Shown here: one piece after another, positions 44,601 through 53,920 of the stretch
How the letters are laid out: every line of letters starts with the position of its first letter
Numbering within the stretch: position 1 is the stretch's first letter
DNA from: a virus
Length of the DNA stretch: 64,000 bases
Virus genome (UHGV): UHGV-0141727
Strand: one strand, 5' to 3'
The notes under the pieces: generated by a model
Seen by the model: only the letters and a program-made list of their open reading frames with translations
The model's database searches: none
Told to the model about the DNA's origin: nothing
Made by a program: the position numbers and the translations under genes

Positions 44601-45403
44601 TCGATCACTCCGTTTTGAGTGGTATCAAAGTTCCTGGCCGGGATGCAGTAATAAAGGGAACCAACGTGTTGTGTTCCGTAGCTGAAGATTCGATGCACGT
44701 ACCACCAGCGGCGGGCGAGGCCATTCGCCATTTCTTCGTTCCATTCCAGGATTGAACCAACAGGTACGTTGTTTGCAGCAATACGCAGGATTAGCACTTC
44801 ATCAGCAAGACCATCCTGTTCTCCATCGGCATCAATGGCATGAAACGAATCCCTTCCGTCCGGGTTATCTAGGACGTATACGATTTCCGGTTCCAGATAG
44901 GTAAGCTCACGCTGGTTGTTGTCCAGTTGCGTGAAAGACTCTTCACCTGTTTCATCGTTTACGACGCCATAGGTGCCATCAGCCGGGCGATATAAAAGCG
45001 CCTCGAATGCGTCAGGGCTTGATTCAATAATAAGCATCCAATCGGCGCGGATCTGGTCGTTGAACGCTTTGTGTCCGTTATATCGGGTTTTAAGCTGCTG
45101 GTTTGGTTCTCTGTTTGCGAGCGATGCCGGTAGGGGAGCGATGTCAGGTTCAATCACTTCCGTAACAGAGTCACCAGCATTATCAGGCCAATTATCATGG
45201 CGGCTATCTGCTTCGGTGGCAGCGCGTTCTTCCAGAATACTGAATGGCCCTGTACTGACCTTCCCATTTTCCGTTGTGCTTCCTTCATTCGCTTCAACCG
45301 TCGTTGTCTCTTCTCTCTGCGTGCTGTCATGTTCTGTTCCCTTTCTCATCAGGCTTGCATCATCAGCAAGCCATTCATCAAAACGGCCCATAAGCGTCCT
45401 CAA
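44597..45403 (-). CDS. acidic structural-module protein (unknown)
   Basis: 268 aa, first gene after the plus-strand insert. Confidence 0.3.
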   Translation of the reverse strand: MRTLMGRFDEWLADDASLMRKGTEHDSTQREETTTVEANEGSTTENGKVSTGPFSILEERAATEADSRHDNWPDNAGDSVTEVIEPDIAPLPASLANREPNQQLKTRYNGHKAFNDQIRADWMLIIESSPDAFEALLYRPADGTYGVVNDETGEESFTQLDNNQRELTYLEPEIVYVLDNPDGRDSFHAIDADGEQDGLADEVLILRIAANNVPVGSILEWNEEMANGLARRWWYVHRIFSYGTQHVGSLYYCIPARNFDTTQNGVIE

Positions 45404-45540
45404 AGGTCGATTTATCAGGTATAGAGGGGAATTGTCTGGAGATTGTGATTTGTTTGTCGCCAGGTAATTTCTTTAGATTGATGAGGCGAAATCTATCGGA
45501 GGTGCGGTATCATTGTTCGGTCAGAACTTAAGGAGAAACA

Positions 45541-46080
45541 GTGAGTCAGGAAGTTGAAAAGTGGCGAGCATTTGAACACCCTGATGGTGTTATTCGTGAT
45601 TTGTCATTTCTTGACGCTCATCAGGCTGTGTTTGTTCAGCAACAAGAAGGAAAGCAACCGATAGAGTATCGCTTTTGGGTTACGTACTCTTTTCACTGCT
45701 TCACAAAAGACTATGCACACCAGACTGAGGAAGAGAAACTGGCGTTAATGTACCACGCCCCTAAAGAGTCTCGTCCATTTTGTGAGCGTCGCTATAATCT
45801 TGCCAAACTTCACTTAAAAGAGGCAATTCTGTCATTGTCGGAAGGTAAGGTGATCCATGCCGGATACGGAAGCTATGCCGTTATTGAGGTAAATATTGGG
45901 GAGGGTAACAAGGAGTATTATTTTGTTGCGTTTAAGGCTTTCAGGGAAAAGAAAAAGTTGCGGTTACACATCACTAGCGCCTACCCGGTATCAGAAAAAC
46001 CAAATGGCAGGTCAGTGAAGTTTTTCGCAATCGCATACAATCTGTTAAGGAACAAACCGCTTCCTAAGCCACCAAAATAA
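45541..46080 (+). CDS. hypothetical protein, opposite-strand moron inside the baseplate operon
   Basis: 179 aa, GTG start 5 nt after AAGGAGA. Own upstream gap of 137 bp and a downstream hairpin. No family recognised. Confidence 0.6.
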   Translation: MSQEVEKWRAFEHPDGVIRDLSFLDAHQAVFVQQQEGKQPIEYRFWVTYSFHCFTKDYAHQTEEEKLALMYHAPKESRPFCERRYNLAKLHLKEAILSLSEGKVIHAGYGSYAVIEVNIGEGNKEYYFVAFKAFREKKKLRLHITSAYPVSEKPNGRSVKFFAIAYNLLRNKPLPKPPK

Positions 46081-46305: not shown

Positions 46306-47511
46306 TTATACATTTTTTACGTTGTTCTTCACATACGCCATGAACATCTTTTCGGCTTGTGCTGGTGGTGTTCCTGCCATAACAAGCGCATCAATGAACG
46401 CCTGCTTCTTCAGTGCGAACTGATCAGCAAGGCGTTGCTGAAGTTCCTTGTTTTTCTGCTTCTCCCGTTGCAAAGCTGCTTCTTTTGCCGCTGCCCGTTT
46501 TTTCTGTGCGTCGGATAACTTTCTGGCCCTGGTCAGTTGGTCACGCAGCTTGTCGATCTTACCGTTGTCCTTTGCCAGTTTTGAGCTTAAAGCGGCCTGG
46601 CGTTTCTGATAGAGCTTCCATTCACGTTTAGCTGCCTCAACATTCGTTTTGCTGCTACGGTTTCGATTGAACGCCTTCTCGTCTTCTTTTGTGAAGTGTT
46701 TTGTCGTGCGGCGGCGATCGTCACCAAAGGCAACTTGCTTTGCAGCTTTTTGCAGGGCGCGAGCAATACTCATCTGCCAACTGGCAGACTGTAGTCGTGT
46801 CATTGAGTGGATCACATGTTTACAGGCGACGCCTTGCAGCTTAGGGTTGCGAACTTTTGGATAGGCGTATTCTTTTGGCGGGGCCAGGGCAAAGTTACCC
46901 GCAGTGGCGATGTAGCGATACCAGTATTGATGGCGACCGCAGTCACAGTCGAAAGACACTCGCCCGGCACACAGTGATTTTGTGACTTTCAGGGCTGATT
47001 TATCGTCTTCTGCGATGTCATCGACCATCTGATCCCATTCTTCAAAACGTACCCGGACAATGTGGTGCTGGTGAACGGATATATCGGACGCTTCCACGCG
47101 GATATTAATCACATTGTGACGAAGAGATACGGGCGTAGCTCTTTTGATACCAGAACCGTCGTCTACGGCGTTATTTGCTCGCTTAATATCGATAGCCTGG
47201 CTGGACGCTACCAGTTGTGCGTATGTGATGCCAGCCGTCTTGCTGTCATATTTTTCGCGTGCTTTGCTTCGCAGCTTTTCGAAGCCTTTCAGATCGTCAC
47301 GCGTAAAGAACGTGCCGCCTTTCTTTTTCCCCAGCTTAAGAATGTCTTCGGCTGATTTATTCCTAAGCCTGCCCGGCGTGAGTGTCCTGTGCGCCTGGCG
47401 GCGTTTGCGGTTTTGCTCTTTCCTGATGAGTTCAAATACGCGTGTGAAATCCTTAGAGGACAGACCGTTAGTGATATATCGCCCGTCCTGATTTTTCAGG
47501 AAGTCAGGCAT
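46306..47511 (-). CDS. SWIM zinc-finger-containing tail-module protein
   Basis: 401 aa with a CDCGRHQYW...CKHVIH (CxC...CxH) motif and a long basic coiled-coil C-terminus. Confidence 0.45.
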   Translation of the reverse strand: MPDFLKNQDGRYITNGLSSKDFTRVFELIRKEQNRKRRQAHRTLTPGRLRNKSAEDILKLGKKKGGTFFTRDDLKGFEKLRSKAREKYDSKTAGITYAQLVASSQAIDIKRANNAVDDGSGIKRATPVSLRHNVINIRVEASDISVHQHHIVRVRFEEWDQMVDDIAEDDKSALKVTKSLCAGRVSFDCDCGRHQYWYRYIATAGNFALAPPKEYAYPKVRNPKLQGVACKHVIHSMTRLQSASWQMSIARALQKAAKQVAFGDDRRRTTKHFTKEDEKAFNRNRSSKTNVEAAKREWKLYQKRQAALSSKLAKDNGKIDKLRDQLTRARKLSDAQKKRAAAKEAALQREKQKNKELQQRLADQFALKKQAFIDALVMAGTPPAQAEKMFMAYVKNNVKNV

Positions 47512-47833
47512 TTTCTATCTCCGGTGCCGAGCCAGCGTAATCGCGAATCTTGTTTCTTAGCCATGCTGCGTCAGGAAGAGTTAACGTTGTCCCTACCGGC
47601 ATTTCTTCCATTTCTGACTCATGGCCCACCAGCACGCGAAATACCCAGCGCAAATCAGCATTGCCATAGGCGCGATAGGCCGCCAGGTCTGAGCGATAAA
47701 CCTCATCAATTTTTATCGTGTACTGGAAATTATCGGAGTGATACTCCGATACCCGCTTGATCATCTCCTGATGGAATAGTGCGCGCAGCACATCGTCTTC
47801 AATGCATCGATCGTCGAGCCTGCTGTAACTCAT
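47504..47833 (-). CDS. tail protein X-like (LysM-like)
   Basis: 109 aa. YTIKIDEVYRSDLAAYRAYGNADL...PVGTTLTLPD resembles the P2 gpX family. Confidence 0.5.
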   Translation of the reverse strand: MSYSRLDDRCIEDDVLRALFHQEMIKRVSEYHSDNFQYTIKIDEVYRSDLAAYRAYGNADLRWVFRVLVGHESEMEEMPVGTTLTLPDAAWLRNKIRDYAGSAPEIENA

Positions 47834-47925
47834 AACAGTTCCTCACAGTCATAACCTGTGGGGAACTGTATGCAGGGTGTGAAATGCGGGAAAGCAGCGT
47901 CACCTGGCCTGGTGACGCTGTAAAA

Positions 47926-48207
47926 TTATGCGTGGGAAAATAATGGACGGATGTTTGGGCGAGCGGTTTGCGAAGCAACCCAAAGCTCATACTGGGATTG
48001 CATACCGGTCCACATTTCGGCACTGGTTCCAAGAGCGGACTCCAGACGAAGTGCCATATCAGCAGAAATACCTGTTTTTTCGTTCAGAATTCGGGAAAGT
48101 GCCGTGCGAGTAATGCCTAATGCAGCAGCTGCGTCTGTGACTGACATGTCTCCCAAATATTCACGAAGAACCGCGCCTGGATGCGCGGGATTATGCATAC
48201 GACTCAT
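47926..48207 (-). CDS. higA: HigA-family antitoxin (addiction module antidote), no cognate HigB adjacent
   Basis: 93 aa. [12 protein letters not shown]...[35 protein letters not shown] is the canonical HigA/VapI HTH pattern. Its start overlaps the upstream stop. Confidence 0.85.
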
Positions 48208-48503
48208 ATGTGGAAAGCAACCCGTTTACCGGTTGGCAATTCAACGTCCAGACTCAACTTTCCACCCATAGCCTCAACGTAACGTTTAAGCGTTGCTACT
48301 TTCAAGTCATTGCCTCGTTGTTCAAGTTTTGTGATGGCTGGTTGACTAATTCCCATCGCATCGGCAACTGTTTTTTGTGATAACTGAAGCTCCTCTCTCA
48401 ACATCTGCAATCCGACTTCCAGAATCATTTCATCAGCCTGCTCTTTGATACGAGCTTGGCTTTCAGGGGATTGCGCAGCAATAACTTCTCTTAGAGTTCT
48501 CAT
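48204..48503 (-). CDS. XRE-family HTH antitoxin
   Basis: 99 aa. [25 protein letters not shown]. Overlaps the toxin stop by 1 nt. Confidence 0.75.
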
Positions 48504-48850
48504 TATTTTTTCTCAAGTTCTGCAAGATGGTTGGAAAATTCGTCGTCTGCAATCCGTATCATTCTTTCGTAGAACTTTTTATCGTTACTCTTATCTCCGG
48601 CGCACAGGATTATGGCTTGCCTTACCGGATCAAATGCGAAGAATGCTCTGATAGGGCGACCAGCGTACTGAATCCGTAACTCCTTCATGTTTTTATGGCG
48701 TGAGCCTTTAACTGTGTCGGCATATGGCCTTGATAATGAAGGGCCATATGTTTCCAGATTGATCAGGTCAACCAGGATTTTTTCTTTTAATGCAGGTTCC
48801 TGTTCCTGGAACCATTCATCAAAAATTTTTCCAAAATAAATTTGCCACAT
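48503..48850 (-). CDS. RelE/ParE-superfamily toxin (phage gp49-like/DUF891 type)
   Basis: 115 aa. LKELRIQYAGRPIRAFFAFDPVRQAIILCAGDK is typical of gp49-like toxins. Confidence 0.8.
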   Translation of the reverse strand: MWQIYFGKIFDEWFQEQEPALKEKILVDLINLETYGPSLSRPYADTVKGSRHKNMKELRIQYAGRPIRAFFAFDPVRQAIILCAGDKSNDKKFYERMIRIADDEFSNHLAELEKK

Positions 48851-48870
48851 AGTTATTCAAAATCCTTTTT

Positions 48871-48923
48871 AATAAACTACATGTTATAAACTACAGGTTA
48901 TATCATATAACCTGTAGTTTATA
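48871..48923 (-). promoter_or_regulatory. TA operon operator: perfect 18-3-18 palindrome plus an extra half-site
   Basis: TATAAACTACAGGTTATA-TCA-TATAACCTGTAGTTTATA at 48885-48923. A third copy, ATAAACTACATGTTATA, lies at 48872-48888. Located 35 bp upstream of the toxin start. Confidence 0.7.
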
Positions 48924-48955
48924 TTTTCAAGGCCATTTTTTATTCGATTTAGCAT

Positions 48956-49609
48956 TTAAAGTATCACGGTATCCTCATCAACTTCTTTCCCTGCCAGTGA
49001 CTTTGGCTGGGAGGCTGCTGCTTTAACCTTCTCATGCCCAATAATGGACAGGAACGAGGCCATTATCCCTGCTTTGTTTTCTTTCTCTACCGCTCCTGTC
49101 ATTTGTTTCAGGTAATCCGCGCTGGCAACATTGTGGTATACCGTTGCATAGCAGCACAGAATCATCAGGATGTGCTCTGGTCGGATATCTTGCCAGTTAA
49201 CTCGATAAACCTCTTCACCGTTGCCGTTGTATTCGGTATCGACGATAGAGTCGGGGATCTCAAATGCCCCTTTGTTCTTGTCAGGCAGGGATAGCAGCCT
49301 TTGTAGTTTCAGCTCCCGGTATCTTTCCATGCCGACAATGATCGCCGCTCTGCCGTCGGCGTGCCGTGTTTTTAATGTTACCTGACTGGCACCTGTACCG
49401 GCTGAAATGGTTGGCGTGATTTCGTCAACCAGCACCTTAAATTCACTTTTACGCAGCTCGGCAATTGCTGGTGGAATTTTTCGTTTTTGTTCAATAGCAG
49501 ATGCAGGGAGCGGCTTTACTTTGTCAATTACAAGCGCGCCGTCTTTCAGGACTGCCGTAGCCATCAGCGGCTTGTTAGTCGAAAGGCTGAATATTGCGAT
49601 CTTTTGCAT
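48956..49609 (-). CDS. hypothetical protein
   Basis: 217 aa. Preceded by a minus-strand terminator, so probably has its own promoter. No family recognised. Confidence 0.5.
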   Translation of the reverse strand: MQKIAIFSLSTNKPLMATAVLKDGALVIDKVKPLPASAIEQKRKIPPAIAELRKSEFKVLVDEITPTISAGTGASQVTLKTRHADGRAAIIVGMERYRELKLQRLLSLPDKNKGAFEIPDSIVDTEYNGNGEEVYRVNWQDIRPEHILMILCCYATVYHNVASADYLKQMTGAVEKENKAGIMASFLSIIGHEKVKAAASQPKSLAGKEVDEDTVIL

Positions 49610-53208: not shown

Positions 53209-53256
53209 AATGTACAACGGTGAATTTCACAATTCAACTTAAAATGTTAGAAAACT
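53209..53256 (-). promoter_or_regulatory. promoter of immI-like module 2 with upstream operator half-site
   Basis: Minus strand GTTTTCTAACAT (53255-53244), then 6 nt, then TTGAAT (53237-53232), N17, TACATT (53214-53209). The spacer contains the palindrome GTGAAATTCAC. Confidence 0.5.
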
Positions 53257-53830
53257 AATTTATTAATTCAGTCACCATCTGATACAACGTCATTTCATCG
53301 GCATTGTGCCGCCTGAAATCTGCTTTGCCGCCTATTTTTCCATCAGCATGAACAGGGACCAACCAGGGGTATTGCTCGCGTATCTCTGCTGGCGCTGCGT
53401 GTTGATGGTGCCATTTACACAAAGGGAGAACGTATTTATGCGCGTTCTCTGCCGTTCTCCCGAAGATGTGGTGCAGGGATACCACAGGGCTATGCTGTCC
53501 GTGCATATGGCAGGCAATGCAGGGGAGAGCACCGATGGCAGTTTGTATCCGGCGCTCATCTGCTGTGAGCGTTCTGCCTTTCAGGCCACGTGACGTGCGC
53601 GTTTTTTTGACTGGAGCAGAAGCGGCCTTCTCTTTTCTTCGCTGTTCATATTGCTTCGCTTTTTCAATTTTCTTTTGCCGATATTCAGGCGATGCAGCCT
53701 TTTCTCGCGCACGCTGCTGCTGGCGTTGAGCTTGCTGAAGACGCTTTGCCCTTTGTTCCTCCCGCCATTTCGGATCAGCCAGTTTTTTCAGGGCTTTTTG
53801 CGTCTGTTTCTCCCAATAGCTTTGCTTCAT
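53255..53830 (-). CDS. ref: Ref-like HNH endonuclease (P1 recombination enhancement function)
   Basis: ORF 53255..53872 has a TTG start; ATG 53830 is likelier. Basic disordered N-terminus, then RGLKGRT..ERRI...GALPCIACHMHG...SLHHI.GRT...LPLCKWHHQHAAPAEIREQYPWLVPVHADG, closely matching recalled P1 Ref. Confidence 0.8.
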   Translation of the reverse strand: MKQSYWEKQTQKALKKLADPKWREEQRAKRLQQAQRQQQRAREKAASPEYRQKKIEKAKQYEQRRKEKAASAPVKKTRTSRGLKGRTLTADERRIQTAIGALPCIACHMHGQHSPVVSLHHIFGRTAENAHKYVLPLCKWHHQHAAPAEIREQYPWLVPVHADGKIGGKADFRRHNADEMTLYQMVTELIN

Positions 53831-53873
53831 AGAAATACCCGGTTTGTCTACATCGCCGCTATGGTTGATCAAA

Positions 53874-53920
53874 TGTGTTAGAAAATCAAAATTGATTTTC
53901 TAACACAAAATGAAGATACT
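53874..53920. promoter_or_regulatory. best-conserved promoter-operator (divergent: ref / plus-strand early operon)
   Basis: Perfect 15-bp arms TGTGTTAGAAAATCA-aaat-TGATTTTCTAACACA at 53874-53907. Plus-strand promoter is TTGATT (53892-97), N17, GATACT (53915-20). Confidence 0.7.

Follow-up and report, generated by a model that had tools for sequence, protein, structure and literature searches.

What is an antitoxin gene without its toxin doing at the end of a complete toxin-antitoxin (TA) operon? A locus in the virus genome UHGV-0141727 raises this question. We analysed a stretch of 64,000 nucleotides (nt) of this genome, hereafter the window, which represents a D6-like (P1-related) phage-plasmid of Escherichia coli. 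Three small genes follow one another there on the minus strand. The first encodes a RelE-superfamily toxin of the Gp49 family with 115 amino acids (aa; 48503-48850). The second encodes its XRE antitoxin and repressor, a protein of 99 aa with a helix-turn-helix (HTH) domain (48204-48503). The third encodes a HigA-family antitoxin of 93 aa (47926-48207), and no higB gene adjoins it. We refer to these genes as the trio. Comparison with related plasmids shows that the trio is a chimeric operon, in which a foreign gp49/XRE cassette took the place of higB and of the higBA promoter. The old antitoxin was retained. It could now protect the cell from the HigB of sibling plasmids.

Replacement of higB in the cargo slot

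The trio occupies a cargo slot between two backbone genes, both on the minus strand. The upstream flank is mat (maturation control, 48956-49609), which is annotated in phage D6 and in sibling plasmids. The downstream flank is the baseplate gene 26 (47504-47833). In phage D6 and many plasmids, the interval between mat and gene 26 is an empty spacer of about 330 bp. About 17 plasmids of PLSDB carry a canonical higB-higA pair in the same slot, and the HigB of this pair is a PF05015 toxin. One of the plasmids with an intact higBA in the slot is pEC361_3 (NZ_AP027414.1). Among the complete relatives, it is the one nearest to the window, with 98.4% identity over 93% of a 25-kb stretch, and it has higB-higA at the slot in place of the trio.

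We made a five-way alignment of the window and of relatives that have either higBA or an empty slot. Colinearity with the higBA plasmids begins at position 48208, one base before the higA ATG, and extends through higA, the hairpin behind it and gene 26. From 48208 upstream to the mat stop codon, the window and the higBA plasmids have nothing in common. On its left side, the inserted cassette is bounded by the mat stop codon (48956-48958), where homology to all relatives stops. Between these two limits lies the foreign cassette of 747 bp (48209-48955, minus strand), with a promoter, an operator and the gp49 and XRE genes. It took the place of about 625 bp, which comprised higB with the higBA promoter, as well as the ancestral spacer. 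The retained higA has neither a promoter of its own nor the GAGGA Shine-Dalgarno sequence present in the siblings.

The order of events can also be read from this alignment. The trio lacks a spacer of about 230 bp that is common to the empty-slot and higBA relatives. For this reason, the passage from an empty slot to higBA and then to the trio is the parsimonious order.

The right recombination joint is TATGA (48204-48208, minus strand), at the point where homology to the higBA plasmids begins. The XRE gene is full length. Its homologues end in AF(N/H)I and a stop codon, and many of them end in ...CATATCTGA; here, the stop is provided by the ATGA of higA. A donor ending in ...ATATGA would have a TATGA microhomology with the start of higA (CTATGAG). 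The ancestral plasmid carried a canonical higB-higA addiction module between mat and gene 26. One replacement event, probably mediated by microhomology, then brought in gp49/XRE with its own promoter and operator. The joint falls at the last sense codon of XRE and the first codon of higA.

We did not find the donor of the cassette: PLSDB, the phage collection and the complete E. coli genomes gave no match of at least 85% DNA identity. At the DNA level, the identity of the nearest relatives is about 75%. The proteins of the cassette fall into 90%-identity clusters with only a handful of members, and all the named ones are from E. coli or Escherichia.

The flank itself is mosaic. The last ~80 nt of mat (~48956-49040) are like those of D6 and L002, but elsewhere the flank has 97-98% identity to L001 and L003. 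Such a pattern implies a recombination breakpoint within mat, adjoining the cassette. It suggests that the module moved between backbones after the swap, by homologous recombination in the flanks. Such movement would fit the variable genes that neighbour the trio.

The retained HigA and its partner toxin

The intact higBA of pEC361_3 encodes a HigA protein with 100% identity to that of the window, and the two genes differ at 2 synonymous nt. Since this HigA is the remainder of a higBA module in the same slot, the comparison allows its partner toxin to be identified. It is HigB WP_032323275.1, carried by near-isogenic sibling phage-plasmids. In the siblings L001, L002 and L041-L043, HigB lies immediately upstream of higA. 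In the window, XRE has this position.

We looked for this toxin in other genomes. The exact HigB protein is present on 388 contigs, and a 98-aa variant on 208. A cognate or near-cognate HigB occurs in 41 of the 5426 complete E. coli genomes. Copies with at least 95% identity were found in 15 genomes, and all of those among the matches listed are on plasmids of about 90 kb. Copies with 90-95% identity were found in 18 genomes; those among the matches listed are on plasmids of 130-240 kb, and the higBA pair is intact in one such plasmid that was inspected. The matching toxin is thus carried by competing elements in the same host population, as in anti-addiction orphans.

Close chromosomal homologues occur in 9 of the 5426 genomes. 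Both copies inspected (L039, NZ_CP033635.1; L040, NZ_CP027340.1) have 87-88% DNA identity and are pseudogenes, with toxin and antitoxin frameshifted. They are located in an island rich in insertion sequences, adjoining traF remnants.

An earlier note on this DNA, made from the letters alone, had proposed that the spare HigA could neutralise the HigB-type toxin of a competitor or of the host. The competitor has become a concrete and plausible target, namely the sibling HigB. The host chromosome has lost its place in this proposal with the decay of the inspected copies. An action against the host would be anti-defence: HigA would neutralise a chromosomal HigB-type toxin of abortive infection while the phage-plasmid infects the cell. 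The element is a phage, and orphan antitoxin-like counter-defence genes are known in phages (bioRxiv 10.1101/2024.07.11.602962). Nevertheless, we consider anti-defence very improbable. Close chromosomal homologues are few and the inspected ones are pseudogenes of both genes. Other HigA families of E. coli are only distantly related (the solved HigA 2ICP matches the window protein at E 4.5e-9). Furthermore, HigA would be driven by a predicted autorepressed TA promoter and not by an early lytic one.

Families and junctions of the three genes

The earlier note had described the three genes as one overlapping unit, the first two as a standard RelE-superfamily/XRE pair, and the third as a HigA without a HigB partner. 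These descriptions agree with our results. The gp49/XRE junction is TAATG, with base 48503 common to both genes. At the XRE/higA junction (ATGA, 48204-48207), the TGA stop of XRE lies within the start of higA. All three genes have the same orientation, with a single promoter/operator upstream.

The 115-aa toxin matches Pfam PF05973 (Gp49) with 76.9 bits (cutoff 23.9, E 1.3e-21). It is not a member of the NCBIfam equivalog TIGR02683 (upstrm_HI1419 RelE/ParE toxin), where it scores 20.4 bits, below the cutoff of 62.85. A sequence search of the PDB gave 0 matches to solved structures for this toxin. Toxins from full-length bicistronic gp49/XRE modules of diverse Enterobacterales have 60-78% identity to it.

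The XRE protein has an HTH_3 domain. It matches the solved HigA3 (6LTY) and HigA2 (7EWC) of Mycobacterium tuberculosis with E ~2e-4, and both of these are the partners of Gp49-family toxins (PMC5906591). Three related plasmid modules have antitoxins with 71-90% identity to it. The reverse gene order (toxin first) and the overlapping HTH-XRE antitoxin are those of a Gp49/XRE type II TA module.

The third protein matches TIGR02607 with 97.9 bits (cutoff 47.7), and it is a true HigA. Its relatives with solved structures include GraA (6F8S), Pseudomonas aeruginosa HigA (6JPI) and Proteus vulgaris HigA (4MCX). No HigB-type toxin was detectable within the 64-kb window by tblastn with PF05015 and PF09907 representatives. 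A weak match of 30 aa (45384-45473, E 0.008) lies inside unrelated open reading frames (ORFs), and we dismissed it as a HigB. A PADLOC scan gave weak or partial matches alone, to the C-terminal region of NsnC and to generic HTH models, and these were uninformative.

After higA there is a GC-rich hairpin of 10 bp (47895-47920, minus strand; -20.2 kcal/mol, z-score -4.7), which is likely the terminator. A consensus terminator scan did not call it, and its T-run is weak. The hairpin is common to the higBA plasmids and missing in the empty-slot relatives; hence, it was inherited with higBA.

Promoter and operator

The cassette has a sigma-70-like promoter, TTGAAA-17 nt-TATGAT (48902-48930, minus strand), with 10 of 12 consensus matches. 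Its -10 element is centred on the centre of a perfect palindrome of 39 bp (48885-48923), the longest perfect palindrome in the window. The earlier note had placed the palindrome and its length correctly. It had read it as 18-3-18, and the actual structure is 19-1-19. The palindrome contains two 16-bp boxes of the form ATAA-N8-TTAT: O1 (48907-48922), between the -35 and -10 elements, and O2 (48886-48901), its inverted copy. A third half-site at 48872-48888, already seen in that note, is present and matches 16 of 17 bases. Its box O3 (48872-48887) is a direct repeat of O2, located behind the -10 element and ahead of the ribosome-binding site. The half-site pattern was counted 3 times, with 0.10 expected, and none of 100 shuffles gave as many.

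Two ATAA-N8-TTAT boxes are found in 22 of 23 promoters of the gp49/XRE family, with a consensus of ~TATAAGCTAYAGCTTATA. In the family layout, the first box lies between -35 and -10 and the second just downstream, so that they flank the -10 element. The two boxes are often exact inverted copies (for example, in L053 and L055), and the second box of L027 is identical to the half-site of the window. The start-to-start spacings of the boxes are 21 and 14 nt in the window, and 21-29 nt (mostly 25-29) in relatives. The recurrence of this layout supports the earlier reading of the palindrome as an operator. The layout is typical of the family and only unusually compact in the window.

Natural variants exist among the operators. 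L009 has an A>C change in the left arm and a T>G change in the right arm (equivalent to 48890 and 48918 in the window). They are symmetric, and the palindrome stays perfect. L007 and L033 have the right-arm substitution alone. The double change of L009 possibly reflects selection for dyad symmetry, or a hairpin-templated correction.

At the sequence level, a dyad operator overlaps the promoter of its own operon, which predicts autoregulation. Dimeric XRE, with the toxin as co-repressor, would bind the three boxes, which reach from the spacer over the -10 element to the start region of the promoter. In a Gp49-family module of Acinetobacter baumannii, experiments showed that the antitoxin represses its own operon and that the toxin serves as co-repressor (PMC5906591).

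The window has a second long perfect palindrome (53874-53907, 16-2-16, AATGTGTTAGAAAATC AA GATTTTCTAACACATT-like). It is intergenic and operator-like, beside a minus-strand ORF of 205 aa (53255-53872).

Related modules have two genes

We examined 28 related gp49/XRE loci, that is, three plasmid loci and 25 species-representative loci across Enterobacterales. In 0 of 28 was XRE followed directly by a higA gene of the same strand. All of them are bicistronic, followed by unrelated sequence or by their own terminator. A recurrent gp49-XRE-HigA architecture was consequently rejected. Judged by these relatives, the trio is not a conserved tripartite system.

In the Firmicute Amphibacillus jilinensis Y1 (scaffold15, L044), the gp49/XRE locus has the same 79-nt tail after XRE and the same match statistics as L045 and L046 from Yersinia pestis NCTC5923. 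This identity is likely due to contamination or to a shared small plasmid.

The trio could still be a true three-component system, like PaaR2-PaaA2-ParE2, if HigA had been recruited as a second Gp49 antitoxin or as an extra regulator of the operon. The operon organisation with translational coupling is compatible with this, HigA is an HTH DNA-binding protein, and the Gp49 and HigB toxins both belong to the RelE superfamily. However, the pair is self-sufficient, given that its relatives do without the third gene. HigA is unchanged in protein sequence from that of higBA, which argues against an adaptation to a new partner. The Gp49 and PF05015 HigB toxins are distant, with ~20% identity (PMC5906591). 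The conserved palindrome of the higBA promoter (TGTGTA..TACACA), the putative HigA operator, has no relation to the ATAA-N8-TTAT boxes, and the whole window lacks it. HigA therefore has no obvious cis target there. We regard a three-component system as improbable.

Distribution, selection and the possible role of HigA

Neither PLSDB nor the phage collection nor the 5426 complete E. coli genomes contain the trio; only the flanks or higA matched there. It was found only in draft and metagenome assemblies. The exact proteins are present on 251 (gp49), 266 (XRE) and 246 (HigA) contigs. We read 30 trio contexts. In all 30, the trio occupies the same slot with its three ORFs intact, and the neighbouring genes are variable. 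These contexts contain four higA nucleotide haplotypes, 0-6 nt apart, that encode two HigA proteins. Two trio haplotypes are ~1.4% apart, and the higA of the window is only 2 nt from that of L001. The HigA family as a whole is under strong purifying selection: the higA of L041 has 25 nt differences and only 3 amino-acid differences.

We propose that the operon combines a working gp49/XRE module with a retained HigA that acts in trans against the sibling HigB, that is, as an anti-addiction gene. After the swap, gp49/XRE would be the active addiction (or defence) module. HigA would be co-transcribed with it and translated by termination-reinitiation at the ATGA overlap. Because a living higBA pair has the identical antitoxin, this HigA would be expected to neutralise the HigB of that pair in trans. 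The retained HigA would have allowed the cell of the original swap to survive leftover HigB. Later, a cell might receive the trio plasmid and lose a higBA sibling incompatible with it, and this cell would then escape post-segregational killing by HigB. The outcome would be a one-sided immunity, and the trio plasmid would impose its own new addiction. That orphan antitoxins act in this way is an established idea (PMC7354431; PMC7192599). We infer the expression of HigA, its neutralisation of HigB in trans and the selective benefit; for the first two, we rely on the ATGA coupling and on the identity to the cognate antitoxin. In our judgement, the chances for and against this proposal are even.

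Several points weigh against it. The incompatibility of trio and higBA plasmids is assumed from their similarity. Because the GAGGA Shine-Dalgarno was lost, the level of HigA hangs on translational coupling and may be low. The few differences from L001 and between trio haplotypes mean that the swap is recent, so the intact ORFs in 30 of 30 contexts are weak evidence for selection. In addition, the ratio of nonsynonymous to synonymous changes (N:S) among the trio higA alleles is 2:4, indistinguishable from close higBA alleles, with few substitutions (exploratory Fisher p ~0.07). Finally, the search for HigB covered the 64-kb window, and ~28 kb of the plasmid lie outside it.

Some of these facts would also be expected if HigA were a neutral relic. 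In that case, higB was removed and higA persists without current function, as a recent hitch-hiker on a successful gp49/XRE cassette. The very low divergence of higA, the N:S values and the loss of its promoter and Shine-Dalgarno are in line with this. Surveyed orphan antitoxins are mostly remnants of degraded modules that share the non-toxin context, as here (PMC7192599), and the chromosomal copies of this higBA family decay readily. However, the joint has kept a complete higA ORF, ATGA-coupled to the gene upstream, instead of a truncated or out-of-frame stump. The ORF is intact in every context read, and HigA contigs are about as many as those of gp49 and XRE. Moreover, other plasmids of this family carry the cognate toxin, which means that a selective agent exists. 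We hold a relic to be unlikely.

The anti-addiction proposal can be extended. The toxin swap with retention of the antitoxin may have been an adaptive "addiction upgrade" in the competition between sibling phage-plasmids. Its carrier would be immune to the toxin of the siblings and would impose an addiction that they cannot neutralise. If true, this would help to explain the presence of the trio on several D6-like backbones. We put the upgrade forward tentatively, as somewhat doubtful.

A second variable slot

There is a second variable cargo slot ~2 kb from the trio, downstream of gene 25 (46306-47511). We compared it across loci L005-L037. In the window, it contains an ORF of 179 aa (45541-46080, plus strand), which is YjaZ-like and not a HigB-type TA gene. 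The equivalent 179-aa gene of sibling trio plasmids matches Pfam PF27200 (YjaZ), and the 179-aa gene of pEC361_3 at the same position is annotated as "stationary phase growth adaptation protein". Other sibling trio plasmids have a PF09907 HigB_toxin gene with a 119-aa partner in this slot. Further ones have a PF05015 HigB-like toxin with a 112-aa HTH antitoxin, and the latter is only ~30% identical to the orphan HigA.

Significance of the locus

The two TA families are not new, nor are orphan antitoxins and anti-addiction. We found no paper in the literature that describes a gp49-XRE-higA trio. The new elements are an in-situ toxin swap resolved to the base, with the old antitoxin retained, the translational fusion of this antitoxin to another TA operon, and the location on a phage-plasmid that has near-isogenic siblings with the old toxin. 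The locus documents how TA cassettes replace one another in a cargo slot of P1/D6-like phage-plasmids. It also warns that such gene triplets should not be taken as designed three-component systems. Orphan antitoxins have long been proposed as anti-addiction or immunity genes, and this has rarely been demonstrated (PMC7354431). The trio offers a clean natural test case: its origin can be traced to the base, the cognate toxin is known, and both forms are common in E. coli.

Comparison with known systems

The first two genes resemble the Gp49 "reverse" type II modules, such as A. baumannii HigBA2 (pAB120), M. tuberculosis HigBA2 (Rv2022c-Rv2021c) and HigBA3 (Rv3182-Rv3183), and Tad-Ata. In all of them, a PF05973 toxin comes first and an XRE-HTH antitoxin overlaps it. 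The predicted operator overlaps the promoter as in those modules, and the XRE protein matches the M. tuberculosis HigA3 and HigA2 structures. However, the toxin of the window is far from any solved toxin and below the TIGR02683 cutoff. The window also differs in its three tightly packed boxes with a perfect 39-bp palindrome, and in the third gene fused downstream.

This third gene belongs to the same antitoxin family as those of Rts1/Proteus vulgaris HigBA, Pseudomonas putida GraTA and P. aeruginosa HigBA, and the siblings carry the full pair. In contrast to canonical HigBA, toxin, promoter, operator and ribosome-binding site have all been lost in the window, and HigA is under a foreign TA promoter.

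Three small co-transcribed genes that include a RelE-superfamily toxin are also known from PaaR2-PaaA2-ParE2 and from M. tuberculosis TAC (HigB1-HigA1-SecB-like chaperone). In these systems, the third component is conserved with the pair. The third gene of the window comes from another TA family and accompanies none of the 28 related modules.

The closest parallels for the role proposed here are found among toxinless antitoxins. They include the chromosomal CcdA of Erwinia chrysanthemi, set against the CcdB of the F plasmid, and the orphan antitoxins on plasmids (Bartonella pVbh, Klebsiella surveys). As in the window, the antitoxin lacks its toxin, and competing mobile elements carry a matching one. 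Unlike these cases, the orphan of the window is carried by a phage-plasmid and not by a chromosome. It is ATGA-coupled to a different, complete TA pair, and its presumed competitor is a near-isogenic sibling. Its origin by in-situ replacement of the toxin can be followed to the base.

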